Shown here: piece after piece, positions 2,590 through 35,207 of the stretch | Layout: each line of letters starts with the position of its first letter | Numbering within the stretch: the first letter of the stretch is position 1 | From: Candidatus Woesebacteria bacterium | GTDB taxonomy: Bacteria > Patescibacteriota > Microgenomatia > UBA8517 | DNA length: 64,000 nucleotides | NCBI GenBank assembly: GCA_016432365.1 | Contig: CP066686.1 | Coordinates: 554,319 to 618,318 of the forward strand | Direction: 5' to 3' | The notes under the pieces: generated by a model | What the model saw: the letters and a program-made list of their open reading frames with translations, nothing else | What the model was told of the DNA's origin: nothing | Databases searched by the model: none | Made by a program: the position numbers and the translations under genes

Positions 2590-4051
2590 TACCCCTTTTT
2601 TTAGATCTAAATTTTTCGAGTATTTAATTTTATCAATAATTTTAGTTATGGGCTTCGTTGTGAGGCTTTACAGAATACAAAATCCAATAGCTGATTGGCA
2701 TTCTTGGAGACAGGCGGATACGGCATCTGTCACTCGTATGTATGTAGATAAGGGTATTAATTTTCTTTACCCCAGATATCATGATATCTCAAGCGTTCAA
2801 ACCGGCGTCTTTAACCCAAATGGGTATAGAATGGTAGAGTTTCCATTTTACAATGCTATTGCAGCATTGCTTACTAACACCTCTTCCGTTTTTTCTATGG
2901 AAGTTTGGTCGAGACTGGTTACTATTTCCTGTGCCTTAATTACTTCGTTTTTCTTGTATCTTATTGGTAAAAGATTTATTGGTAAATGGGGTGGGCTCCT
3001 GAGTGCATTTTTTTATTTATTTATTCCGTATAATATTTATTTTACTCGGGTAATACTCCCTGATCCAATGGGTGTAACTTTTGGGGTAATTTCACTTTGG
3101 TCATTTATCAGATTTTTTGATGACAACGGTGACTACTATTTATACCTTTCCGGAATATTTTTCGCAGCAATGCTTTTGATAAAACCCTACATGGGTTTTT
3201 ATATCATTCCGATGTGTTATCTTGCTCTTAAGAAATATGGATTAAAGAGAATTTTTAAAGACAAGCAAATTCTTTTTAAGTCGATCGCTTTTTTTGTTCT
3301 GGCGTTTTTACCGTTTGTTCTTTGGCGTGCTTGGATATCGAAATTTCCGGAAGGAATTCCTTTTTATCTTTGGGCTTTCAATGGCGATAGAATCAGATTT
3401 AAACCCTCATTTTGGTATTGGATTTTTGGAGAGCGGTTGGGACACTTGATATTGGGTTCCTTGGGTCTTATTCCGTTCGTTTTCGGTATTTTTAATACGA
3501 AGGTTAAAAATTTATTTATTCAATGGTTTTTGGTGGGGATATTTATGTATGTCGTAACTGTTGCTTCGGCTAATGTTATGCACGATTATTATCAGATTCA
3601 ATCAATTCCAGTTATTGCCTTAACACTTGCGGCGGGGTTTGTTTATTTGTGGCATCAACAAAATTTTAATAGATGGTTGGTAAGGATCACTTTGTTCATT
3701 TCTGTCTGGGTGATGTTGGTTACCGGGTGGAGTCAGGTTGTTGGAAATTACAATATTAATCATCCAGAGATTCTTATTGCAGGTACCGAAGTGGACAAAA
3801 TTACTTCAAAAGACGCGATTGTTGTAGCTCCATACAATGGTGATACTGCATTTTTGTATGCAACAAAGCGTTCCGGTTGGCCGGCAATTGACGATGCAAT
3901 AGATAATATCATCGAAAAAGGGGCTGATTACTATGTTTCGGTTGACTTGGGCAGTGCCGATACGAAAATGATAGCGTCAAGATTCAAAACTATACAGAAA
4001 ACTGACAAGTTTATAATTATTGATTTACACCAAGCAGTAAAAACCAAATGA
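2555..4051 (+). CDS. PMT/ArnT-family GT-C glycosyltransferase (GT39/GT83-like, polyprenyl-phosphate-sugar dependent)
   Basis: Polytopic membrane protein. N-terminal region FRSKFFEYLILSIILVMGFVVRLYRI...W(R/D)(Q/E)AxxA resembles the PMT_2/ArnT first-loop signature. About 500 aa. Confidence 0.65.
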   Translation: MWLKINNMNKNNTPFFRSKFFEYLILSIILVMGFVVRLYRIQNPIADWHSWRQADTASVTRMYVDKGINFLYPRYHDISSVQTGVFNPNGYRMVEFPFYNAIAALLTNTSSVFSMEVWSRLVTISCALITSFFLYLIGKRFIGKWGGLLSAFFYLFIPYNIYFTRVILPDPMGVTFGVISLWSFIRFFDDNGDYYLYLSGIFFAAMLLIKPYMGFYIIPMCYLALKKYGLKRIFKDKQILFKSIAFFVLAFLPFVLWRAWISKFPEGIPFYLWAFNGDRIRFKPSFWYWIFGERLGHLILGSLGLIPFVFGIFNTKVKNLFIQWFLVGIFMYVVTVASANVMHDYYQIQSIPVIALTLAAGFVYLWHQQNFNRWLVRITLFISVWVMLVTGWSQVVGNYNINHPEILIAGTEVDKITSKDAIVVAPYNGDTAFLYATKRSGWPAIDDAIDNIIEKGADYYVSVDLGSADTKMIASRFKTIQKTDKFIIIDLHQAVKTK

Positions 4052-23202: not shown

Positions 23203-24906
23203 ATGCGTGACAGGAAAAAAAACAAACCCGAGTGGAGACTTATAATTTTCTCTGTAATTTATTTGCTTCTTTTTACAGGATTAATTCTCAGACTTATTTA
23301 TTGGCAAGTTATAAGGGGAACGGATCTATCCGAGGGGGCTAAGGGTCAATATAAATCTTCTCGTATTACTGTTGCACCAAGGGGAAATATTTTGGCCAGC
23401 GATGGTAGTTTTTGGGCACTACGAACCGACGCCTGGTTTGTTTATGCGAACACCAACGAGCTTACTGCAAACGTTTCTGACGTGTCAAACAAACTTGCAG
23501 TTCTTCTAGATGATGATGAGTCACGTTTGTTTAGTCTTTTGAGTAAAAAAAGTGCCTACGTACCTCTAAAACAGAAAATCGATAATGAGACTAAAAAAAA
23601 TATCGAAGCCCTAGGAATAAAGGGAATTGGCTTTGAAACACGGGAGGCGAGGTATTACCCGGAGGCTTCAACTGCGGCACAACTTTTGGGGTTTGTAGGC
23701 AAGGACGAAACCGGTGCCGATATTGGTTATTTTGGTCTGGAGGGCTACTACAACCTGCCTTTAAGCGGTAAACCGGGTTTTTTGGGAAGGGAAAAGGATG
23801 CTCACGGGTCACCCATTCTGATAGAGCCCGGTAAAAGCGTTTCAGCAATTAATGGAATTGATTTATTGACAAGTATCGACAAAAGAATACAAATTTTAGC
23901 AGAGGCAAAACTAAAAGAGGGTATAGAAAAATATGGGGCGTTAGGTGGCTCGATCACAATTGAGGACCCGAAAACGGGTGAAATATTGGCAATGGCAAGT
24001 TATCCATCATACGATCCAAGTAACTACAGTGAATACGGAAACTCCTTTTTTAAAAACCCGGTTATTTCCGATACATTTGAACCTGGATCAATTATGAAGG
24101 TGATTGTTATGGCAGCAGGACTAGATGCCGGACTGGTTAAACCGGATACAGAATGTGATATTTGCTCGGAGCCACTGAAGCTTGACAAGTACTTTATAAA
24201 AACTTGGAACAATAAGTACCACCCCAACATTTCGATGACGGACGTTATAGTTGACTCCGACAATGTCGGAATGGTTTTTGTGGGACAAAAATTGGGTGCT
24301 GATGGTTTGTACAGTTATTTTGACAATTTTGGTGTGGGCCAACTTACCGGAATAGATTTACAAGGCGAAAGTGCGCCACCCCTTAGAAAAAAGGGGACTT
24401 GGAATATGGTGGATTTGGCAACTGCCAGTTTCGGACAGGGAGTCGCTGTGACCGGCATTCAAATGGTTAGGGCTGTTTCTGCAATTGCTAATGGGGGATA
24501 TATGTTAATACCGAAAGTTGTAACCGGCTTAAAGGGCGATGGATGGGAAGAAAAAATTAAAGTAGAATCGCCCAAAAAAGTGATAAGTTCAGAAGCGGCT
24601 ACGCAGATCACACAAATGATGATCGAAGCGGCGGATAAAGGAGAGGCAAAGTGGGCAAAGGTTCCTGGTTTTAAGGTAGCAGGCAAAACCGGGACAGCTC
24701 AGATTCCGGTTGAAGGCCATTATGATTCTACAAATACGAACCATTCATTTATTGGTTTTGCCCCGGCAGATAAACCAAAATTTGTAATGCTTGTAACCTT
24801 AAAGTCTCCTCAGAGTTCGCCGTGGGCTGCTGAAACTGCAGCCCCACTTTGGTACACAGTTGCAAAAGAACTCTTTCTATATTTGGGGATTGAGCCCAGT
24901 CAGTAG
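23203..24906 (+). CDS. ftsI: Class B penicillin-binding protein (FtsI/PBP2 transpeptidase)
   Basis: N-terminal TM and PBP dimerisation domain. Transpeptidase motifs SxxK-like (ASYPSYD context), SDN (VDSDNVG), KTG (AGKTGTAQ). Confidence 0.85.
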   Translation: MRDRKKNKPEWRLIIFSVIYLLLFTGLILRLIYWQVIRGTDLSEGAKGQYKSSRITVAPRGNILASDGSFWALRTDAWFVYANTNELTANVSDVSNKLAVLLDDDESRLFSLLSKKSAYVPLKQKIDNETKKNIEALGIKGIGFETREARYYPEASTAAQLLGFVGKDETGADIGYFGLEGYYNLPLSGKPGFLGREKDAHGSPILIEPGKSVSAINGIDLLTSIDKRIQILAEAKLKEGIEKYGALGGSITIEDPKTGEILAMASYPSYDPSNYSEYGNSFFKNPVISDTFEPGSIMKVIVMAAGLDAGLVKPDTECDICSEPLKLDKYFIKTWNNKYHPNISMTDVIVDSDNVGMVFVGQKLGADGLYSYFDNFGVGQLTGIDLQGESAPPLRKKGTWNMVDLATASFGQGVAVTGIQMVRAVSAIANGGYMLIPKVVTGLKGDGWEEKIKVESPKKVISSEAATQITQMMIEAADKGEAKWAKVPGFKVAGKTGTAQIPVEGHYDSTNTNHSFIGFAPADKPKFVMLVTLKSPQSSPWAAETAAPLWYTVAKELFLYLGIEPSQ

Positions 24907-24920
24907 TATACTTATCTCTG

Positions 24921-26171
24921 ATGTCAAAATTAATTGTTACTGGCGGCAGAAAACTTGAAGGTAATATTAGCCTTTCAGGTAATAAGAACTCGGTTTTGAA
25001 GCTAATCCCAGCAGTTCTTCTTGCAGATTCCCCCTCTACTCTAACAAATGTACCTGATATATTGGATGTTTCTGTTGTGCTTCAGCTTATTGAGACTTTG
25101 GGAGCAAAAGTTACAAGGGACGGCCATTCGGTTACGATAGACCCTTCGGGATTACACTCTTTCGACTTGGATCCGGATCTTTCTGCAAAATTTAGAGCTT
25201 CGGTTGTCCTTGCTGCACCTCTTTTAGTCAAATTCGGCAAAGCGATCGTTACACCTCCTGGGGGAGACCAAATAGGAGACAGATTCTTGGATACCCATTT
25301 TTCTATGATGCAAAAGATGGGGGTTGAAATGAGGCGTGAAGATGGAAGGTTTTTCCTCACCTGGAACAAGAAAAAAACTGGTACCCTCTTCTTAGAAGAA
25401 GCTTCTGTGACTGCCACCGAAATGGCTCTAATGATGGCCACTTCTTCTCCGGACATCACAGTAGTTGAAAACGCTGCCACAGAACCTCACGTTACAGACT
25501 TAGGTAAACTGTTAATTAAAATGGGGGCAAAAATAACAGGTTTGGGTCTTAGTACCCTATCTATTTCCGGTGGAAAATTAAAAGGCGTTGAATACAGAGT
25601 TATGCCCGATCATATTGAAGGCGGTACGTTTGTGATAGCCTCGGCAATTACCGGCGGGCATATAAAAATAGATGATTTCATCCCCGAAGATCACAGGATG
25701 GCTCTAATCAATCTTGCAAACATGGGTGTTAAATTTGAGCTGTCAAAAAACAGTATCGAGGTTTTTCCGTCAAAATTGGTTGCTACTAGAAAGAAATTTA
25801 AAGCCCAACCTTGGCCGGGTTTTCCGACGGATCTCATGAGTCCTTTTATCGTTCTTGCCACACAAACCCAGGGAACGGTTCTCTGCCACGATTGGATGTA
25901 TGAATGGAGAATGTTTTTTGTAGACGATCTAATTTCAATGGGAGCAAATATTTTCATTGCTGACCCCCATAGAGTCATTGTTAGCGGCCCTACGCCTTTG
26001 ATGAGCGACAGACTTTTTTGTAAAGATATTAGGGCGGGGATTTCGGTAATATTAGCAGCCCTTATTGCGGACGGTAGGAGTGAAATAGAAAATATTGAAG
26101 TAGTTCAAAGAGGGTATGAAAGAATAGATGAAAGGTTAAGAAGTTTGGGAGCAGAGATAGTTACGAAATAA
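24921..26171 (+). CDS. murA: UDP-N-acetylglucosamine 1-carboxyvinyltransferase
   Basis: LIVTGGRKLEGNISLSGNKNSVLKL..PAVLLAD is the MurA N-terminus. About 416 aa. Confidence 0.9.
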   Translation: MSKLIVTGGRKLEGNISLSGNKNSVLKLIPAVLLADSPSTLTNVPDILDVSVVLQLIETLGAKVTRDGHSVTIDPSGLHSFDLDPDLSAKFRASVVLAAPLLVKFGKAIVTPPGGDQIGDRFLDTHFSMMQKMGVEMRREDGRFFLTWNKKKTGTLFLEEASVTATEMALMMATSSPDITVVENAATEPHVTDLGKLLIKMGAKITGLGLSTLSISGGKLKGVEYRVMPDHIEGGTFVIASAITGGHIKIDDFIPEDHRMALINLANMGVKFELSKNSIEVFPSKLVATRKKFKAQPWPGFPTDLMSPFIVLATQTQGTVLCHDWMYEWRMFFVDDLISMGANIFIADPHRVIVSGPTPLMSDRLFCKDIRAGISVILAALIADGRSEIENIEVVQRGYERIDERLRSLGAEIVTK

Positions 26172-27188
26172 ATGTCAGGTAAAACTCTCAAATTCCGTCA
26201 AAAAATTGTCACCTTCGGCGGAAAGACCGGACACTTCCAGCTACTGAATGGTTTAAAAAAATTCAACGATACCGAGTTTATTACTGCAGTTGTTGGGACA
26301 TGGGACAGCGGAGGAAGTAGCGGAGTCTTAAGAAGCGAACTTGGGGTTCTTCCCCCAGGGGACATCAGAGCCTGCCTTTTGGCTCTAATGGAAGATGATG
26401 AACAACAAAGAGTCGCTCAAAGATTGTTTGACGATAGGTTAAAGGAGGTGGTAGGCCCCTTAAAAGGACATTCCCTAGGAAACCTGATAGGAGTTAGGCT
26501 TGATCACATTTTTCATGGGCAGGATAGAGGAACGGATGCCGAGCGCTCGCTTTTTAGAATTCGTGGACATGTGCTTCCGGCGACATTAACAGATTTAAAC
26601 TTGGTTGCGGTTACAAAAAAAGGGAAAGAGATAGATGGCGAAACAAATATTGATACCCGCCGTGAACAAGATGGATTTGATCCAAAAGATAGGATTATGC
26701 GCATATATTTTGGTACACACGCAGACAGTAATCCCAGAGTCCTCGAGGCGATTAAAAAGGCAGACAAAATAGTTTTTGCTCCGGGTGACCTGTACACAAG
26801 TGTTTTACCCCATTTGCTTATAGCAGGAGTTCCGGAGGCAATTCAGAAAAGTCATGCAAAAGTTTACTTTGTTCTGAATTTAATTGAAAAAGAGGGAGAG
26901 ACAGATTATTTTAAAGCGTCAGATTTTGTAAAAGCGTTTATTTTTTACCTTGGTAATCCAAAACGATTGGATTACTTAGTTGCCAATGGTGGTAGTTTCG
27001 GCAGAGAAATTGTAAAGGTCTATGAAGGTGAAAAGAAAAAGGCTGTCAAACTTGATGAACCGACATGTAGAAAGATTGCTCCAAATGTAAACATAATTAA
27101 AACTAAATTGTGGGAATATCTTAAAACAGCACACCTACTTCGTCACGATTCGGAAAAACTTGCGCTTAGTATTTTACAAGAACGCTGA
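26172..27188 (+). CDS. yvcK: YvcK/GlmR-like gluconeogenesis factor (UPF0052/CofD-like)
   Basis: IVTFGGKTGHFQLLNGL...ITAVVGTWDSGGSSGVLRSELGVLPPGDIRACLLAL matches the YvcK signature. Confidence 0.8.
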   Translation: MSGKTLKFRQKIVTFGGKTGHFQLLNGLKKFNDTEFITAVVGTWDSGGSSGVLRSELGVLPPGDIRACLLALMEDDEQQRVAQRLFDDRLKEVVGPLKGHSLGNLIGVRLDHIFHGQDRGTDAERSLFRIRGHVLPATLTDLNLVAVTKKGKEIDGETNIDTRREQDGFDPKDRIMRIYFGTHADSNPRVLEAIKKADKIVFAPGDLYTSVLPHLLIAGVPEAIQKSHAKVYFVLNLIEKEGETDYFKASDFVKAFIFYLGNPKRLDYLVANGGSFGREIVKVYEGEKKKAVKLDEPTCRKIAPNVNIIKTKLWEYLKTAHLLRHDSEKLALSILQER

Positions 27189-27233
27189 ATGATATATAAT
27201 TTGCTGAGAGGAAATAGGTAGTTCTTTTATTAC

Positions 27234-27546
27234 AGAGCGTGTGGCCCCGCGAAGCCTTGGCGGAGTGGGGATACGAGGAAGAAGGTCCAAGGTATAAAAT
27301 TGATCGTTAGTCTTGGAAATCGTACCCGCATCATTTTGAATGATACGGAGTATCTGCGGAAACCTTCCGGCATGTTGAATGCCGAAATGATTTTTTTAAA
27401 ATTCCGGAGTAATCCGGAAAGTGAAGCCCCCCAACCTAACGGTCGGGGTATCTTCTCCCAAGCTTTGTCGGGAGCGAAATCCCCCAGAAGCGAAACATCT
27501 TCGCTTACCAGCGGGCTGACGCCCTAGGTATTTGCGAAGGGGGATA
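27234..27546 (+). ncRNA. glmS ribozyme: Candidate glmS ribozyme (GlcN6P-responsive self-cleaving leader) in glmS 5'UTR
   Basis: About 310-nt GC-enriched structured leader immediately 5' of glmS. It contains an AGCG...GGCGG hairpin followed by a GAUACGAGGAAGAAGGU...UAUAAAAUUGAUCG segment resembling the conserved glmS-ribozyme core (GACGAGGAUGGAGGUUAUCGAAUUUUCGG in Bacillus, recalled from memory). A TATATAAT-type -10 lies at about 27191-27200. The ORF-track 75-aa ORF here is non-coding-like. Confidence 0.5.
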
Positions 27547-27595
27547 AAGAAAAATCTGGTCAACAACTACTTCAGACCTTTCTATTAAAGTTTTT

Positions 27596-29368
27596 ATGTG
27601 TGGAATTTTTGGTTATATTGGAAAACGTACCGATTCTGCAAAAATAGTTTTTGACGGATTAAAAAGTCTTGAATACCGTGGCTATGATTCATGGGGTGTT
27701 GCCGTACTGTCTAAGTCCAGTTTAAAAATTTTTACTAAAAAGGCTGCAGGAAAAATAGGAAATAATAATGTAAATGCGTTGCCCGACGGAAATATCGCAA
27801 TCGGACACACAAGATGGGCTACACATGGCGGCGTCACAGATACAAATTCACATCCACATTCTGACTGCTCGGGAAATATTTCAATAATTCATAATGGAAT
27901 TTTCGAAAATTACGAAGATTATAAAAAGAAACTAGTCCAAAAAGGTCACAAATTTATATCAGAAACCGACACGGAAGTTATCTCACATTTGGTAGAAGAC
28001 TTCAGCAAAAAGTTGACCTTCTCTGATTCAGTTAAAAAAACCTTCAATTTGATGACCGGGCTTAACGCAATAATTGCAGTAAAGCTGATTGAAGACCGTA
28101 TTGTCGCGATAAGAAACGGCTCTCCTCTTGTTGTGGGTTTTGGACAGGATGAGAATTTTTTGGCAAGCGACGCTTCAGCATTACTCCCGTTTACAAAAGA
28201 TGTTTATTTCTTGGAGGACGATGAAATGGTAATTTTGGAAAGGGGTAAAGTAAGAGTTTCAAATGTAAAAACCGGTAAAATTGTGAGATTCAAAAAACAA
28301 AAGCTTAATTGGAATGTCGATCAGGGAGAAATGGGTAAATACTCAAGTTTTATGTTAAAGGAGATTAATGAACAGCCTAAAATTTTGAGAGAAATTGCAA
28401 TGAGTGCCGGCAAAAATGTCGAAAAGATTTCAAAGATAATAAAAAAATCCCGCGGGTCGTATTTGGTGGGGTGTGGTTCGGCTTCCTATGCTGCGATGGC
28501 CGGGACATATTTATTTTCTAAGATTGCTGGACGCCATATAAATTTTGCTATTGGAAGTGAGTTCGGATACCACCTGGATTTTCTAAACAAAGACAGTTTG
28601 GTTATACCCATCTCCCAGTCCGGAGAGACAATAGATATTCTTGAATCAATGAAAAAGGCCAAGGAACGTGGAGCCGGGATTGTTTCGCTTGTTAATGTTC
28701 TGGGATCTTCTCTATACAGGATGTCTGATGAAAAAATTTTAATAGGGGCGGGGCCAGAAAAATCGGTTGCTTCGACAAAAGCACTTACGGGAATGATTGC
28801 CCATTTGGTTTTGCTTTCATTTTCGTTAGACGGCGGAGTCAAAAAAGGTAAAAAAGCTTTATTGGAGGCGGCTAATTCTATTAAAAAAATTCTTTCAGGT
28901 AAAGACTCCAAAAACATTAAAAAGTTAGCAGACATTATATGTGATAGTAAAAACATCTATGTGATTGGACGTGGACTCTCTTACCCAACAGCTCTTGAAA
29001 CAGCAATGAAAATTAAGGAAATTTCATATATCCACGCGGAAGGGTTGGCTGCGGGGGAACTTAAACACGGACCGTTGGCATTGGTAACAAAAGGAACTCC
29101 TTGTATTGCCTTTTTACCAAACGATGAAACATATGGTGCTAATCTTGCTGGGGCAATGGAGATGAAAGCGAGGGGGGGATTTGTAATAGGTATTTCATTT
29201 AAATCTCACGAGGTTTTTGATTATTATATTCAGGTAAAAGATGTGGGCATAGCCACAATGATTCCGAATATTGTTGTGGGTCAACTTTTAGCCTATTTTT
29301 TGACGATAAAAAAAGGATTGGATGTAGATAAGCCCCGCAATTTGGCAAAAAGTGTAACTGTTAAATAG
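27596..29368 (+). CDS. glmS: Glutamine--fructose-6-phosphate aminotransferase (isomerizing)
   Basis: MCGIFGYIG N-terminal nucleophile Cys, glutaminase domain, two SIS domains. 590 aa. Confidence 0.9.
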   Translation: MCGIFGYIGKRTDSAKIVFDGLKSLEYRGYDSWGVAVLSKSSLKIFTKKAAGKIGNNNVNALPDGNIAIGHTRWATHGGVTDTNSHPHSDCSGNISIIHNGIFENYEDYKKKLVQKGHKFISETDTEVISHLVEDFSKKLTFSDSVKKTFNLMTGLNAIIAVKLIEDRIVAIRNGSPLVVGFGQDENFLASDASALLPFTKDVYFLEDDEMVILERGKVRVSNVKTGKIVRFKKQKLNWNVDQGEMGKYSSFMLKEINEQPKILREIAMSAGKNVEKISKIIKKSRGSYLVGCGSASYAAMAGTYLFSKIAGRHINFAIGSEFGYHLDFLNKDSLVIPISQSGETIDILESMKKAKERGAGIVSLVNVLGSSLYRMSDEKILIGAGPEKSVASTKALTGMIAHLVLLSFSLDGGVKKGKKALLEAANSIKKILSGKDSKNIKKLADIICDSKNIYVIGRGLSYPTALETAMKIKEISYIHAEGLAAGELKHGPLALVTKGTPCIAFLPNDETYGANLAGAMEMKARGGFVIGISFKSHEVFDYYIQVKDVGIATMIPNIVVGQLLAYFLTIKKGLDVDKPRNLAKSVTVK

Positions 29369-29441: not shown

Positions 29442-29971
29442 TGATTATCTTCAGTGGTTATTTTTGTAATGAACCCGAATTTTTCGTAAAGTTTTATTGC
29501 AAATTTGTTATCCCTTCTGGTGACAAGCCAAAATCCTTTTTGTTGAGACTCTAGATATTTATCGGATTTCATAAATTTTTCAAACGCGGCTCTCATAAGT
29601 TTTTCTGAATAACCCTGTCCCCTGGCTGGAGGATAAATTCTAATCGCAAACGTAAAAGGAAATTCTATTGCTTGTGGATTTGCTTTAAACGCAAACCAAG
29701 CTACGCCCAAAAGTTTTCCATTTTTATCACTTAATGTGTAAATATATTTACCCAACACCCATTTTTCAAAAGATTCCAGACTCTTAAATCTTTTGGCGTC
29801 ATGGGTGAATTTTCTGATCTGGGGATCGGACTTAGTGTAACTCAATAATTCCTGAACCTGATTTTTGGTTATTCCTAAAGAAACTATTTGGCCATGCATT
29901 TGGTATAATATACCACGAATGGGGAAAATTATTGGTATTACCGATGACTCCAGAAAGGTTAAACCAGGCAT
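29414..29971 (-). CDS. GNAT family N-acetyltransferase
   Basis: ARGQGYSEKLMRA...AIKLYEKFGF match GNAT motifs A/B. The true start may be the internal Met (MHGQIV), which would remove the overlap with murE. Confidence 0.7.
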   Translation of the reverse strand: MPGLTFLESSVIPIIFPIRGILYQMHGQIVSLGITKNQVQELLSYTKSDPQIRKFTHDAKRFKSLESFEKWVLGKYIYTLSDKNGKLLGVAWFAFKANPQAIEFPFTFAIRIYPPARGQGYSEKLMRAAFEKFMKSDKYLESQQKGFWLVTRRDNKFAIKLYEKFGFITKITTEDNHLLMTFSPS

Positions 29972-31952
29972 GGTTTTTGTCGCGGTTAAGGGTAAGACAA
30001 CTGACGGGCATAACTATATTGAAGAAGCTCTAAAAAATGGTGCGGAACATGTTTTTGGAGAAATGAATTTTAAAAATTCAAAATATACTAAGGTATCGGA
30101 CTCGAGGCAAAAACTAGGTGATTTAGCATCAGAATTTTACGAAAATCCCTCAAAAAAACTGAAGATTATTGGTGTAACCGGTACAAAAGGTAAGACTACC
30201 ACAACACATATTATTTACCATATTTTAACCGCTTTGAAAAAAAAGGCGGGAATGGTTTCCTCGAATATGGCAAGGATTGGAAACAAAGAAGTCGATACGG
30301 GGTTCCATGTAACAAGCCCTGATGTAATTTCACTTCATAAATTTTTAAAAGAAATGGTAGATGCCGGGTGTGAATATGCTGTAATTGAGGTCAGTTCACA
30401 CGGAATAGACCAGAAAAGAATTGCCGGGGTCGATTTTGAAGTCGGAGTTTTGACCAATATTGCTCCTGAACATCTGGATTATCACAAAACCTTCAGAGAA
30501 TATAGACGGGTCAAAATGTCATTTGTTAACTCGTGTAAATTTAAGGTTATTGCACCCAAAGAAACTACTACAAATATTCTTCCCGGAAAATTCAACAATT
30601 TGAATGTTGATGTGGCCGTTGAAACCGTAACAAAACTTGGCTTTGATAGAAAAAAAGCGTTGGGAACTTTGGAATCTTTCGAATTACCAAAAGGAAGATT
30701 GGACGAAATCAAAAACAATTTAGGTTTTAGAATAGTAATCGACTTCGCTCACACACCCGACTCGTTGGAAGCAGTACTCACATATTTGAGATCGGAACGT
30801 AAAGGCAAGGGGAAATTGATTTCTGTATTCGGATGCGCCGGGGAAAGAGATATCAAAAAAAGATTCAAAATGGGTAAAGTTTCAGTTAAACTGGCGGATT
30901 TTTCGGTATTTACCGCTGAGGATCCAAGGAGTGAGGATGTAAATGATATTTTGGCCAAAATGGTTGAAGGAGCAAAATCAGTTGGAGGGATCGATGGGAA
31001 AAACTTTGTCAGAATTCCGCTTCGAGGAGAAGCGGTTGCATTCGCACTTTCTATCGCAAAAAAGGGCGATATCGTAGGGTTTTTTGGAAAAGGGCACGAA
31101 ACCAGTATGGCATATAGCGCGTGTGACGCTTCAAGCAATGCTTGTAAAAGATTTGAACATCCTTGGAGTGATAGAACCGAAATTGAAAATTATTTACATG
31201 GAACGCCTGATGTCTCGGCGGTAATTTTGGCGGCAGGAAAAGGAACAAGAATGAGATCTCAATATCCGAAAGTCATTCATGAAATTTGTGGACGTCCGAT
31301 GGTTTCGTACACACTTGAGAACTTAAGAAAGGCCGGAATAATAGATATCACCGCGGTTGTTTCGTTTAGAAAAAACCTTGTAATTAATAGAATTAAAGGT
31401 GCTGTAAAAATTGCGTACCAGAAAAATCCAAAAGGAGGAACCGCTGATGCCGCTAAAGCAGGTTTCAAGCTGATTTCTCCAAACACTAAAACCCTCTTAA
31501 TCATAAACGGAGACGACAGCGCGTTTTACACCCCGGAAACGATTAAAAAAATTTTAGAAATCCACACAGATAGAGAGCGGAAACTTACATTTGTATCTTT
31601 GATGAAAGAAAATCCAACAGGATTGGGCCGTGTTATACGTAGACCCGACGGTCTTATTGCAAAAATTGTTGAGGAGAAAGACGCAACTGATGCAGAAAGA
31701 AAAATTAACGAAGTCAATGACGGCCTTTATGTTTTTGATAAAAAATGGTTCTCTCGTAATATAGAAAAAGTTAAGAAAAGTGCTCAGGGGGAATATTACC
31801 TGGTAGATTTGATTAAGCTTGCGATAGACCAGGGAGATAGAATGGCTACTTATACTTTACCGAATGATGACGAATGGCAGGGGATTAATACTCCGGAACA
31901 ACTTGCGGAAGCAAATAGGAAGATGGACAAGAAACTAAAAGGACATAATTAA
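29865..31952 (+). CDS. murE: Bifunctional fusion: MurE (UDP-MurNAc-L-Ala-D-Glu:diamino-acid ligase) + GlmU-type GlcNAc-1-P uridyltransferase domain (no acetyltransferase LbH domain)
   Basis: Residues about 19-440 are Mur ligase (GKIIGITDDSRK, GVTGTKGKTTTTHI, DFAHTPDSLEAVL, GKGHE). Residues about 445-695 are a nucleotidyltransferase domain AVILAAGKGTRMRSQYPKVIHEICGRPMV, close to the GlmU N-domain consensus (LAAGKGTRM...PKVLH). The ORF-track start is a TTG; the probable true start is the Met at about 29919. Confidence 0.8.
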   Translation: MVIPKETIWPCIWYNIPRMGKIIGITDDSRKVKPGMVFVAVKGKTTDGHNYIEEALKNGAEHVFGEMNFKNSKYTKVSDSRQKLGDLASEFYENPSKKLKIIGVTGTKGKTTTTHIIYHILTALKKKAGMVSSNMARIGNKEVDTGFHVTSPDVISLHKFLKEMVDAGCEYAVIEVSSHGIDQKRIAGVDFEVGVLTNIAPEHLDYHKTFREYRRVKMSFVNSCKFKVIAPKETTTNILPGKFNNLNVDVAVETVTKLGFDRKKALGTLESFELPKGRLDEIKNNLGFRIVIDFAHTPDSLEAVLTYLRSERKGKGKLISVFGCAGERDIKKRFKMGKVSVKLADFSVFTAEDPRSEDVNDILAKMVEGAKSVGGIDGKNFVRIPLRGEAVAFALSIAKKGDIVGFFGKGHETSMAYSACDASSNACKRFEHPWSDRTEIENYLHGTPDVSAVILAAGKGTRMRSQYPKVIHEICGRPMVSYTLENLRKAGIIDITAVVSFRKNLVINRIKGAVKIAYQKNPKGGTADAAKAGFKLISPNTKTLLIINGDDSAFYTPETIKKILEIHTDRERKLTFVSLMKENPTGLGRVIRRPDGLIAKIVEEKDATDAERKINEVNDGLYVFDKKWFSRNIEKVKKSAQGEYYLVDLIKLAIDQGDRMATYTLPNDDEWQGINTPEQLAEANRKMDKKLKGHN

Positions 31953-31953
31953 A

Positions 31954-33018
31954 ATGGAATCAACAGATGACATGGTTGAAGAGTACTTAAATCAGCCTCC
32001 CGTCGATCGAGAACTATCGATAAGATCTATCCGTTTAAACGAGTCGACCGTTGATAGTGGTTTTGTTGAGATTCCCGTTTTACCTCAAAGACCGGCGGTA
32101 AAGCCAGGTGAAGAAGATGCGTTTTTACTAAATACAAAGAAAACATTAAGAGATTTGAATATTTCGGAAACCGAGACTGTTTCTACAGAAGTCATAACAA
32201 TCGGTTTCCAGGAAAATATACCCGACGAGGTACGGGGTCCAGACCGGAGTGGAGAACAGTCTCTGAAAATATATAGTTTTCTGTCTCCAGAAAAAGTTAG
32301 CAAGGAAGGTTTAAAGGATGGGGTTCCTTTAGTAATTTTTAGTCATGGCGGAAAGATACATTCAGAAGTGATTGCGTCGAGTGGATACCTTCCAATGCTT
32401 TATGAAGATAATCCAGATATGATTTTAATTGCTATGGATCACAGAGGATCCCAGTCTCACAAAGCAAAAGAGGATTACGGTTTGGATGACCGTGTGGCTG
32501 ATATCCTCATTGCTCTCAAGTACACCCAAGATAATTTGGTTAAAGAATATGCAGATAAAGGCATTAAGTGGAATGGTAACATTATAATAATTGGAGACAG
32601 TATGGGGGGTGAAGTAGCTACAGTGGTAGCTGAAAAAGTCGGCGCCGACGGCCTGGTTTTAACTGAGCCGGCAGCTTATTCGGTATTTGCACATCATGTA
32701 AAATTCGGTCAAAAAAGTGAACAGGAACCAGTGTTTGGTGGAGAAAAAGGGGTTATTAAAACTAAATCTCCGGAAGACTCTTACGCCTTTGATTCAATCA
32801 AAAAATATGCCAATGAGCCAAACTCAAAAATTTTGATGATAAAAATGAAAAATGACAAAATTGTGGGTAGCGTCCCTGATAAATATATCGAAAGTATAAA
32901 CGAGACAGATCCACAAAAAATCGAAGTCTTAGAAGTTGAGGGGGGTCACGGGTCTACAACACCTGAGGAGGTTAGGAAGATATCAGGTTTTGTAAAGAGT
33001 CTGAAAGGTAAAAAATGA
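31954..33018 (+). CDS. Alpha/beta-hydrolase fold protein (serine hydrolase, GDSMGG nucleophile elbow) with an acidic about 110-aa N-terminal extension
   Basis: GxSxG motif IIIIGDSMGGEVA with HGG oxyanion-type motif upstream (VIFSHGG). No signal peptide. Translationally coupled to both neighbours: 1-nt gap upstream, ATGA overlap downstream. Confidence 0.65.
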   Translation: MESTDDMVEEYLNQPPVDRELSIRSIRLNESTVDSGFVEIPVLPQRPAVKPGEEDAFLLNTKKTLRDLNISETETVSTEVITIGFQENIPDEVRGPDRSGEQSLKIYSFLSPEKVSKEGLKDGVPLVIFSHGGKIHSEVIASSGYLPMLYEDNPDMILIAMDHRGSQSHKAKEDYGLDDRVADILIALKYTQDNLVKEYADKGIKWNGNIIIIGDSMGGEVATVVAEKVGADGLVLTEPAAYSVFAHHVKFGQKSEQEPVFGGEKGVIKTKSPEDSYAFDSIKKYANEPNSKILMIKMKNDKIVGSVPDKYIESINETDPQKIEVLEVEGGHGSTTPEEVRKISGFVKSLKGKK

Positions 33019-35207
33019 CAAAAAAAATTCATTTCGTTGGAATTGGGGGGAGCGGGATTTCGGGTGTGGGCAAATTGGCCGAAAAAATGGGTTACGAAGT
33101 CACGGGATGTGATGTGGAATCTTCCACGGCATATGCAAAAAATATATTTCAAGGACACAGCCCTCAACATTTAGAAGATACTGATTTGGTCGTCGCTTCT
33201 CCAGCTTTATATTTCAACAAAGAAACAATAGATGAGATTGAGGCGGCCCGAAAAGATAGTAAATTAATGACATGGCAGGAGTTTTTAGGCAGAATTCTTT
33301 TAAAAGACAAAAAAATAATTTGTATTGCTGGAACTCATGGTAAGTCTACTACCACAGCAATGGTCGGAAAACTTCTTATTGATAATGGCCTCGATCCGAT
33401 TGTGATGGTCGGTGCGTTTGTCCCAGAGTGGGAAGGGAACTCAAGATTTGGGGAAGGTGAATATGCAGTGATTGAAGCAGACGAATTTAATAATAACTTT
33501 CTTAATTACTATCCGGATATTGCAATCGTAAATAACATAGAATTTGATCATCCCGATTTTTTTAAAAATGAAGGGGAAGTTAGAGAAAGTTTTAAAAAAT
33601 TTGTTGGTAATCTAAAGGGTGAAAAGTTGTTAATTACAGAGGGTGATAGTTTAGGAAAGAAATTCAATTTAAAAATTTTAGGCGAACACAACCAAAAAAA
33701 CGCTAATATGGTTTTTTTGTTAGGTAAGGCATTGGGAATAGATGAAGACAAGATTGTTACTTCGATCGAAAATTTTAAAGGGATTGGTAGGCGACTCGAA
33801 CTAATTGCGGATCGAGACGGGGTTAAGGTTTTTGATGATTATGCTCATCATCCGACAGCGATTAAGACAACGGTTGATGGGTTAAGGGAGGAATATCCCA
33901 AGGCAAAAATTTTAGCAATTGACGAGCCACACGGTTATAAAAGAACGAAAGCGCTTCTTGAAAATTATAAAGGTGTTTTTGATAGTGCAGACAAGGTCAT
34001 TATTGGCCCAATTTTTAAAGCAAGAGATGAAGTTGATCTATCCATTTCGCCGGAATCTGTTGCAAAAGCATCAGCTCATCGAGATATACAAACAGTCGGT
34101 AGTTTGGAAGAATTAATTAATAATTTAAAATTAATAATTAAAAATTTCGATATAGTTGTAGTTATGGGCGCAGGTAAAAGTTATTTGTGGGCCAGAGAAA
34201 TCGCCAGAATTTTACCAGTTAAATTTTCAGATATTACATCCTTTAAAATAGGTGGCAAGATAAAAAAATATTTTGAAGTAAGGACTAAGAACGAGATCGA
34301 TGAAGCTGTTAAATTTGCGAGTAATAACAATTTACCCATTTTTATTATCGGGGACGGAACAGATATTTTAGCATCAGATAAGGACTTTAATGGCATTGTT
34401 GTTAAATATGTAGGTAATAACATTGTTATCGATGATGATGGGAGTGCAACTGCCGAGGCTGGTGCGAATTGGGATAAATTTGTCGAGGAAGCTGTTACCC
34501 AGGGCTTTCAAGGTATTGAAAATTTATCCGGGATTCCCGGAACAGTCGGGGCAGCTCCGATTCAAAATATTGGGGCTTACGGATCGGAGTTAGATGATAG
34601 GTTCATAAGCCTTGAGGCATACGATTTAGAAAAAAGCAAGATAATTACTTTTTCTAAAAGCGATTGTAAATTTGGATACCGCGAAAGCATTTTCAAAAAA
34701 AGCAGCTATTGGCAGAAATTTGTGATTTTAAAAATAAAACTAAAGCTTATTAAAAATCAATTCGGAACGGCAAATTACGAATCATTAAAGAGATATATAA
34801 ATTCAAAAAAACCCACAATTCAAGAAATCCGTGATGCTGTATTAAAAGTGAGGTCCGAAAAATTAGAAAACCCAAAAGTAGTCGGAAATGCAGGTTCGTT
34901 TTTTAAGAACCCGATAGTTACTGCACAAGATAAAGAGAAGCTGGAAATAAAGTTACCCGGCATTAAAATTTTTCCATTTGGAGATAAATTTAAAATATCT
35001 GCTGGATGGTTGATTGAGTCGACAGGGTGGAAAGGTAAAGAATATAAAAACGCGGCGGTTTCTTCTAAACACGCGCTAATATTAATTAACAAAACTGGTA
35101 CAGCTACGGCAAAAGAGATCTACGATTTATCTGAGGAAATAATCAACGATGTCTCTAAAAAATTTGGGATTAAGCTAGAAAGAGAAGTTCAATTAATTAA
35201 TTTTTAA
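33015..35207 (+). CDS. murC: Bifunctional fusion: MurC (UDP-MurNAc:L-Ala ligase) + MurB (UDP-GlcNAc-enolpyruvate reductase)
   Basis: N-terminus KIHFVGIGGSGISGVGKLAEKMGYEVTGCD and IAGTHGKSTTTAM are MurC. C-terminal about 300 aa (KIGGKIKKYFEV...NLSGIPGTVGAAPIQNIGAYG...) is the MurB FAD-binding and substrate domain. Confidence 0.85.
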   Translation: MTKKIHFVGIGGSGISGVGKLAEKMGYEVTGCDVESSTAYAKNIFQGHSPQHLEDTDLVVASPALYFNKETIDEIEAARKDSKLMTWQEFLGRILLKDKKIICIAGTHGKSTTTAMVGKLLIDNGLDPIVMVGAFVPEWEGNSRFGEGEYAVIEADEFNNNFLNYYPDIAIVNNIEFDHPDFFKNEGEVRESFKKFVGNLKGEKLLITEGDSLGKKFNLKILGEHNQKNANMVFLLGKALGIDEDKIVTSIENFKGIGRRLELIADRDGVKVFDDYAHHPTAIKTTVDGLREEYPKAKILAIDEPHGYKRTKALLENYKGVFDSADKVIIGPIFKARDEVDLSISPESVAKASAHRDIQTVGSLEELINNLKLIIKNFDIVVVMGAGKSYLWAREIARILPVKFSDITSFKIGGKIKKYFEVRTKNEIDEAVKFASNNNLPIFIIGDGTDILASDKDFNGIVVKYVGNNIVIDDDGSATAEAGANWDKFVEEAVTQGFQGIENLSGIPGTVGAAPIQNIGAYGSELDDRFISLEAYDLEKSKIITFSKSDCKFGYRESIFKKSSYWQKFVILKIKLKLIKNQFGTANYESLKRYINSKKPTIQEIRDAVLKVRSEKLENPKVVGNAGSFFKNPIVTAQDKEKLEIKLPGIKIFPFGDKFKISAGWLIESTGWKGKEYKNAAVSSKHALILINKTGTATAKEIYDLSEEIINDVSKKFGIKLEREVQLINF

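Follow-up and report, generated by a model that had tools for sequence, protein, structure and literature searches.

The classical glmS ribozyme (RF00234), with structures from Bacillus subtilis, B. anthracis and Thermoanaerobacter tengcongensis, resides in the 5' leader of glmS and occurs in 'many Gram-positive bacteria' (PMC5473149). In Bacillus, cleavage by the ribozyme leads to rapid decay of the mRNA (PMC5473149; PMC10810187). Here we analysed a 64,000-nucleotide (nt) stretch of bacterial DNA (hereafter the window), which GlmS-based scans placed in Candidatus Woesebacteria (Microgenomates, candidate phyla radiation (CPR)), and found that the leader of its glmS gene, at 27227-27565 on the plus strand, is almost certainly a true homologue of this ribozyme class. 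Apart from a unique 124-nt insertion in helix P4, the window copy is typical of the class; it falls in a CPR (Microgenomates) sub-type whose P2 loop holds two additional hairpins. In Enterobacteria, glmS is controlled by the trans-acting small RNAs GlmY and GlmZ together with the adaptor RapZ and RNase E; that system resembles the one proposed here in that glucosamine-6-phosphate (GlcN6P) availability feeds back on glmS expression at the mRNA level, but no cis-acting ribozyme takes part in it, and it is unrelated to such ribozymes in sequence and structure.

The stretch between the end of the yvcK-like open reading frame (ORF) at 27188 and the glmS start at 27596 measures 407 nt, whereas the genes upstream of it are spaced by only 0-14 nt. 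Across 27200-27550 the G+C content is 0.46-0.54 (100-nt windows), compared with 0.29-0.38 in the flanks and 0.39 in the whole window, and the three small ORFs in the gap (47-75 codons) gave no match to Pfam families. In these respects the gap is as a sequence-only reading of the window had described it: about 400 nt long in a tight operon, GC-enriched and non-coding. A permissive Rfam search of 27100-27700 placed RF00234 (glmS) at 27225-27439 (+), over model positions 1-167 of 167, with 35.2 bits and E=1.3e-6. No other significant Rfam match was obtained in the gap, and this one lay on the same strand as glmS; all other families had E>1, so that no other RNA family offered a better covariance match. 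The score narrowly missed the RF00234 gathering score of 37, which the sequence-only reading had looked for, and at Rfam gathering thresholds a tRNA alone, with no glmS match, was reported in the 64-kb window. The low score relative to the 51-64 bits of compact homologues arises because the 124-nt insertion separates the P4 3' and P3.1 strands, and the P4 3' strand that Rfam chose is a poor local substitute with two mismatches. A covariance model built from 14 CPR leaders with the window left out (R1) gave a single match in the 64-kb window, at 27227-27438 (+), with 112.9 bits and E=1.3e-26. The element immediately precedes glmS in the same orientation, ending at 27565 before the glmS ATG at 27596. 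The proposal of a glmS ribozyme leader upstream of glmS is thus borne out by a full-length RF00234 match, by R1 and by intact pseudoknots. If the gap held no ribozyme, the likeness would have to be due to chance, to another RNA family or to a small protein gene, and the Rfam score below the gathering cut-off and the presence of ORFs would fit such an account. In contrast, the two models agree on a full-length element whose strand and position are those expected, no other Rfam family and no Pfam family is matched, and the leader is homologous, segment by segment, to relatives that exceed the gathering score. The probability of this explanation is practically nil, and it is effectively already refuted. 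The leader folds with a z-score of -4.8 on the minus strand and -2.6 on the plus strand; the stronger minus-strand fold was not taken to indicate an antisense RNA, as every significant model match is on the plus strand.

We threaded the pairing scheme of PMC7125110 and PMC11602151 onto the window (Table 1). Every window pair in P1, P2, P2.1, P2.2, P3, P3.1, P4 and P4.1 was canonical or wobble, and the predicted P1/P2/P2.1 pseudoknot is therefore intact. P2.2 is formed by C27238-G27358, G27239-C27357, U27240.G27356, G27241.U27355 and G27243-C27354, with U27242 bulged, and P2.1 by C27274-G27322, G27275-C27321 and A27276-U27320. The conserved ACGAGGA segment is present from A27273, and its ACGAGG is invariant in 14 of 14 R1 seed sequences. 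Two strings had been singled out beforehand as parallels to the ribozyme core. The first, GAUACGAGGAAGAAGG (27270-27285), proved to be the conserved J1/2-P2.1-P2 core; the second, GGUAUAAAAUUGAUCG, makes up the loop in one of the variable hairpins and represents no conserved element, the true P2.1 partner being UCG at 27320-27322. Self-cleavage had been expected near the AGCG at about 27236, and this coincides with the predicted site A27236/G27237. The interval flagged for the element, 27234-27546, was in the right place but too short: the element extends over about 27227-27565, as neither P4 nor the P3.1 pseudoknot closes until after the 124-nt insertion. The 3' end of the Rfam alignment, with GAAGCCC as the P4 3' strand and CAAC at 27432-35 as P3.1, was rejected because the distal strands fit better; those at 27550-56 and 27560-64 pair perfectly, are correctly spaced by 3 nt and have homologues in relatives. 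Folding 27386-27570 alone also yields the long-range P4 (minimum free energy (MFE) structure; z=-3.7). A terminator-like call at 27368-27384 was discarded as P3 followed by the U-rich P4 strand. The segment UUGGAAAUCGUACC (27313-27326), in which both the window-specific U27323 and the P2.1 3' strand lie, has a near-copy, UUGGAAAACGUACC, with 13 of 14 positions identical in the glmS coding region (27618-27631); this repeat may be due to chance.

The window copy shares with the classical ribozyme its location in the 5' leader of glmS, the A/GCG cleavage site, ACGAGGA, the P2.2 (C2-G56, G3-C55) and P2.1 (CGA/UCG) pseudoknots, P1, P2, P3 with the P3.1 pseudoknot, and P4 with an A-rich internal loop (IL4) and a GNRA-capped P4.1. 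It differs in its 5' strand, which reads GCGUGUGG instead of the classical GCGCCnGa, so that P2.2 contains U4.G54 and G5.U53 wobbles and has U as its bulged nucleotide 6. It further differs in carrying two hairpins (32 and ~30 nt) in the P2 loop, in the 124-nt insertion in P4, in its Rfam score of 35.2, below 37, and in its host, a CPR bacterium that hardly ever relies on Shine-Dalgarno sequences. The compact Woesebacteria/Microgenomates ribozymes at the loci that we designate L121, L124, L119, L120, L088, L087 and L114 are of the same sub-type and share the blocks AGCGUGUGG, GAUACGAGGAUGAAGG, AAUCGGACC, GUAUCUGCGGAAACCUUCCGG, GAUUUUUUUAAA, AUAAAGAAAAAUC and UCAAC..CACUUCA, the first of which, the 5' strand around the cleavage site and P2.2, is common to most CPR members. 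In contrast to the window copy, they lack the P4 insertion and have G in place of U27323; their RF00234 scores are 61.3 (L119), 64.2 (L120), 53.4 (L121), 63.3 (L087), 61.2 (L114) and 51.4 bits (L088), and L124 was scored with R1 only, at 124 bits. P1 of L121 is near-identical to that of the window. The 3' part of the window element, AUAAAGAAAAAUC-UGG-UCAACAACUACUUCA (27544-27574), matches compact L088, L120, L121 and L124, in which the 3' layout is ...GAUUUUUUUAAA-[P4.1]-A(C/U)AAAGAAAAAUC-nnn-UCAAC-AACnACUUCA.

Covariation was assessed in 22 CPR relatives with the window excluded. Paired cells amounted to 87.9%, compared with 68.3% in column shuffles and 36-50% in slid controls, and 27 of 41 pairs showed two-sided changes; because the model used for the alignment includes the nested helices, their pairing counts lean towards structure, whereas the pseudoknots lie outside the model. 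P2.2, P2, P2.1 and P3 were paired in 90.9%, 89.1%, 96.7% and 98.4% of cases, respectively. Two-sided changes affected four pairs of P3, all six pairs of P4.1 covaried, and P2.2 and P2.1 were nearly invariant, as in the classical family. For P3.1, a partner-specific, register-free test gave a mean of 4.6 pairs with a sequence's own tail versus 2.9 with other tails, and none of 5000 permutations was as good. The tail that pairs with the P3 loop sits 2-4 nt past the P4 3' strand in relatives, and a compensatory change within the subclade of the window converts GUUGA/UCAAC into GCUGA/UCAGU in L119. Point mutants at G1, C2, G3, A27, C28, G56 and G57 have served as non-cleaving controls (PMC7125110), and the window is wild-type at all seven positions. 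The cofactor-pocket strand UCG (U43-C44-G45) is retained, as are the IL4 adenines (AAAA 27398-401, AAA 27546-48) and the GNRA L4 loop GUAA; from these conserved residues, the RNA would be expected to sense GlcN6P. Among 82 positions invariant in seven subclade relatives, the window differs at three, and the leave-one-out range of the relatives themselves is 0-9. One deviation, U27403, is compensated by A27418, and another, A27280, is the state of other CPR clades. The third, U27323, which directly follows UCG, is specific to the window, the corresponding nucleotide being G in hairpin-bearing relatives and A in the Rfam consensus. The window copy shows no decay.

Table 1. Features of the glmS leader and adjoining genes (positions in the window)
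Feature	Positions	Strand	Basis
PBP2/FtsI-like gene	23203-24906	+	ORF map
murA	24921-26171	+	ORF map
yvcK (CofD-related UDP-N-acetylglucosamine (UDP-GlcNAc)-binding protein)	26172-27188	+	ORF map
Promoter-like site TTTACA-16-TATAAT	27173-27200	+	11 of 12 consensus matches, best site in 26900-27800; consensus match alone
Cleavage site A27236/G27237 and P2.2 5' strand (C27238, G27239, U27240, G27241, bulged U27242, G27243)	27236-27243	+	Rfam alignment, threading
P1 hairpin CCCCGC...GUGGGG, 6 basal pairs	27245-27270	+	threading; base covaries in relatives
J1/2 AUACGAGGAA with P2.1 5' strand C27274-G27275-A27276, then P2 5' strand GAAGG (27281-27285)	27271-27285	+	Rfam alignment, threading
Variable hairpin A in P2 loop	27286-27317	+	fold; in relatives a hairpin of unrelated sequence, 0-52 nt
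P2.1 3' strand UCG, pairs with 27274-27276	27320-27322	+	threading; 96.7% paired in relatives
Variable hairpin B, in place of the short P2.1-P2.2 loop of classical ribozymes	27323-27353	+	fold; 12-86 nt in relatives
P2.2 3' strand C27354, U27355-G27356-C27357-G27358, then GAAA, then P2 3' strand CCUUC (27363-27367)	27354-27367	+	threading
P3 hairpin, 6 bp (27368-73/27379-84), loop GUUGA 27374-27378 = P3.1 5' strand	27368-27384	+	threading
P4 5' strand GAUUUUU (27389-27395) and IL4 5' side with AAAA (27398-27401)	27389-27401	+	threading, MFE fold
P4.1 hairpin UUCCGGA-GUAA-UCCGGAA, GNRA L4 loop	27402-27419	+	Rfam alignment, threading
GC-rich structured insertion inside P4, 124 nt	27420-27543	+	BLAST split of homology, P4 interior lengths
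IL4 3' strand AUAAAG (27544-27549) and P4 3' strand AAAAAUC (27550-27556)	27544-27556	+	homology to L088, L120, L121, L124; pairing; MFE
P3.1 3' strand UCAAC, pairs with 27374-27378, 3 nt past P4 as in relatives	27560-27564	+	threading, own-tail test
glmS (glutamine--fructose-6-phosphate transaminase), regulated gene	27596-29368	+	TIGR01135 604 bits, NF001484 622 bits

The insertion inside P4 (27420-27543) has a G+C content of 58%, compared with 39% for the window, and an MFE of -48.8 kcal/mol (z=-2.3). BLAST of the leader against L088 gave exactly two high-scoring segment pairs, 27349-27400 and 27544-27574, which flank the insertion, and the window blocks 27389-27419 and 27544-27574 match compact relatives but are set apart by 124 nt. 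The P4 interior measures 30-33 nt in 21 of 22 measured relatives and 16 nt in L080. The insertion is absent from the closer relatives L119, L120, L121 and L124, and no relative carrying it was found in a metagenome scan and eight contigs of close GlmS relatives. BLAST and nhmmer detected no further copy of it in the window or in 118 loci, and against Rfam it gave noise only (E>1). No direct or inverted repeats were found at its boundaries, so nothing points to a mobile element. Because CPR glmS ribozymes often carry large idiosyncratic expansions at sites other than this one (5-87 nt in distal P1, 0-52 nt in hairpin A and 12-86 nt in hairpin B), neutral peripheral expansion is the default reading; most simply, to judge from these comparisons, the insertion would be a lineage-specific peripheral expansion that the ribozyme tolerates. 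Alternatively, the insertion could be a module in its own right, a second-ligand or protein site or a folding gate, which controls P4 docking and provides a second input to a composite regulator. Its stable fold, its high G+C content, its location exactly at the contact between P4 and the core, and the lack of repeats or mobile-element hallmarks would suit such a module, but the insertion is a single sequence with no homologue in the loci searched and no Rfam match, hence no covariation, and the frequent growth of P1 and the P2 loop suggests neutral peripheral change. We consider a composite regulator of this kind quite improbable, and the specific version in which a second sensor or protein-binding domain gates docking of IL4 on the core, giving a two-input glmS ribozyme, highly improbable. 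Tolerated peripheral expansion is the reading that we prefer.

A mechanism can be proposed. Transcription probably starts near 27207, about 30 nt 5' of the cleavage site, from the promoter-like site TTTACA-16-TATAAT; TTGACA-like and TAnAAT-like boxes occur at the same relative position in L119, L120 and L121. The RNA would fold into a doubly pseudoknotted core (P1, P2, P2.1 and P2.2) braced by P3/P3.1 and P4/P4.1, the A-rich internal loop and the GNRA loop docking on this core. When GlcN6P, the product of GlmS, accumulates, it would bind the core and act as the cofactor for self-cleavage at A27236/G27237, and the 3' product, which carries glmS behind a 5'-OH end, would then, by analogy with Bacillus, be degraded. 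In Bacillus, the decay enzyme is RNase J1. GlcN6P would thereby be expected to repress, by feedback, the first committed step on the way to UDP-GlcNAc and the cell wall, in a gene cluster of the order murA-yvcK-glmS-murE/glmU.

We consider it likely that the window encodes a functional GlcN6P-responsive ribozyme. Nevertheless, several observations weigh against this. The leader does not reach the gathering score of RF00234. The three nearest relatives by GlmS identity (L001, 88%; L002, 86%; L123, 84%) have the same murA-yvcK-glmS order and no ribozyme, so that this clade can do without the element. An insertion at this site was seen in no other sampled member, the one in the window lies 2 nt upstream of the IL4 3'-strand adenines, and U27323 replaces a G that is invariant among hairpin-bearing relatives. 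No RNase J-like protein was found among the five other ORFs of at least 480 amino acids (aa) scanned within the 64-kb window of this roughly 1.08-Mb genome. The IL4 3'-strand adenines are strictly conserved, mis-docking there can inactivate the Bacillus ribozyme, and a structural role of the IL4 purine stack has been described (PMC11602151). The leader might thus be a relic, a true homologue disabled or crippled by the P4 insertion, possibly together with U27323, that now serves as a long constitutive 5' untranslated region heading for loss; the lack of a ribozyme in the nearest relatives despite identical synteny, the uniqueness among ~30 members of an insertion beside the mutation-sensitive purine stack, and the low Rfam score would all be in keeping with such a fate. 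However, all helices are free of mismatches, even the long-range P4 and P3.1, which must form across the insertion, and the three deviations from subclade-invariant positions are within the relatives' own range. Moreover, the insertion is stably folded and GC-rich in a genome of 39% G+C, and the P4 domain is reported to be dispensable for cleavage in vitro (PMC11602151). A relic is therefore rather unlikely, although the insertion may be very recent, and we favour a working ribozyme.

Outside the window, RF00234 exceeds its gathering score immediately 5' of glmS in many relatives, namely L004, L006, L010, L011, L014, L015, L016, L017, L026, L071, L087, L088, L091, L096, L101, L114, L119, L120 and L121, and 14 of these leaders were used to build R1; ten Microgenomates/Patescibacteria species representatives pass the Rfam threshold. 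R1 matched 16 of 79 species-representative loci, which indicates a patchy presence. The range extension put forward in the sequence-only reading thus needs one qualification: the ribozyme is not unique to this genome, although no paper linking glmS ribozymes with Patescibacteria or CPR was found in the literature searched. Eight leaders (L008, L013, L021, L027, L037, L080, L097 and L103) score below the Rfam gathering score yet reach 62-105 bits with R1, and they carry large expansions (in measured relatives, up to 87 nt in P1 and up to 86 nt in a P2-loop hairpin); L080 has no P4.1, and no P3 was aligned by the model in L037. Because these heavily expanded members, like the window, miss the Rfam gathering score, standard annotation under-counts the class in the phylum.

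The more distant syntenic relatives L119, L121 and L124 retain the ribozyme in a yvcK-ribozyme-glmS arrangement. Among the three nearest relatives, the distance between the yvcK stop and the glmS ATG is 1 nt in L002 (3999-4001) and L123 (1999-2001), and in L001 a 111-nt gap between the two genes (3890-4000) gave no hit to Rfam. The sister lineage appears to have lost the leader cleanly, and vertical inheritance followed by this loss is the most parsimonious history. A homology search with the window GlmS showed a single 100% identical NCBI record, from a Candidatus Woesebacteria metagenome-assembled genome, and no strain variants.

Several further features of the relatives were observed. The segment GUAUCUGCAGAAACC in L119 (1374-1380) and L121 (1384-1390) contains CUGCAG for CUGCGG, that is, G56 is changed to A opposite an unchanged C2. 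The C2-G56 pair is reported to be critical for activity (PMC7125110), yet both RNAs are otherwise well conserved and above the Rfam cut-off (61.3 and 53.4 bits). In most of the Woesebacteria subclade, the P3.1 strand is followed by a conserved (C/U)ACUUCA motif (window 27566-27574; also L088, L114, L119, L120, L121 and L124) that can pair with (U)GAAG of J1/2-P2; this may point to an alternative pairing or to some other role. Several CPR glmS ribozymes (L088, at 1950-1975 and 1990-2020; L004; L120) contain a GAGCGACU...AGUCGA(G/A) module twice, in P1 and again in hairpin A, and this may be a shared structural motif. Many third-party annotation records of metagenome-assembled genomes labelled 'uncultured Gammaproteobacteria bacterium' (L001, L003, L008, L014 and others) encode a GlmS 55-88% identical to the Woesebacteria protein in CPR-type synteny, and these labels look wrong.

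The glmS product begins with MCGIFGYIG, and the whole plus-strand cluster around its gene is compact. On the 3' side of glmS, at 29865-31952, lies an apparent fusion of murE with a GlmU-like N-terminal nucleotidyltransferase domain; the murE plus NTP_transferase architecture is also present in L123. A second apparent fusion, at 33015-35207, joins a Mur ligase (murC-like) with murB domains. As in most genes of the window, no Shine-Dalgarno sequence precedes the glmS ATG: GGAG, GAGG or AGGA occurs at most 20 nt before the first ATG in only 4 of 46 window ORFs of at least 200 aa, and many window ORFs have a TATAAT box 5-12 nt 5' of the ATG (for example, those starting at 324, 9479, 15559, 16386, 19344, 29919 and 39469). 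This suggests that translation in this Woesebacteria genome is mostly leaderless and independent of Shine-Dalgarno sequences. Because Shine-Dalgarno sequences are hardly used and TATAAT boxes stand a few nt before many ATGs, a glmS leader of ~390 nt is unusual in this genome. A strong AAGGAGG is found before glmS in other CPR clades.

Our characterization of the glmS leader of this Woesebacteria genome leaves the understanding of how the glmS ribozyme class works unchanged, and the occurrence at the level of the phylum can be found by routine annotation, since the Rfam model detects compact CPR members. It does place a metabolite-sensing ribozyme in the CPR, whose genomes are tiny and have few known regulators; the papers found made no mention of native riboswitches or ribozymes in CPR bacteria. 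The natural expansions, above all the window insertion beside IL4, are ready-made tests of which peripheral remodelling is tolerated. If the insertion were a sensor or protein-binding domain, this would be a two-input glmS ribozyme in an organism whose mRNAs are mostly leaderless and free of Shine-Dalgarno sequences. More generally, our results imply that some Microgenomates may sense GlcN6P and thereby exert feedback control over the entry step of cell-wall precursor synthesis.

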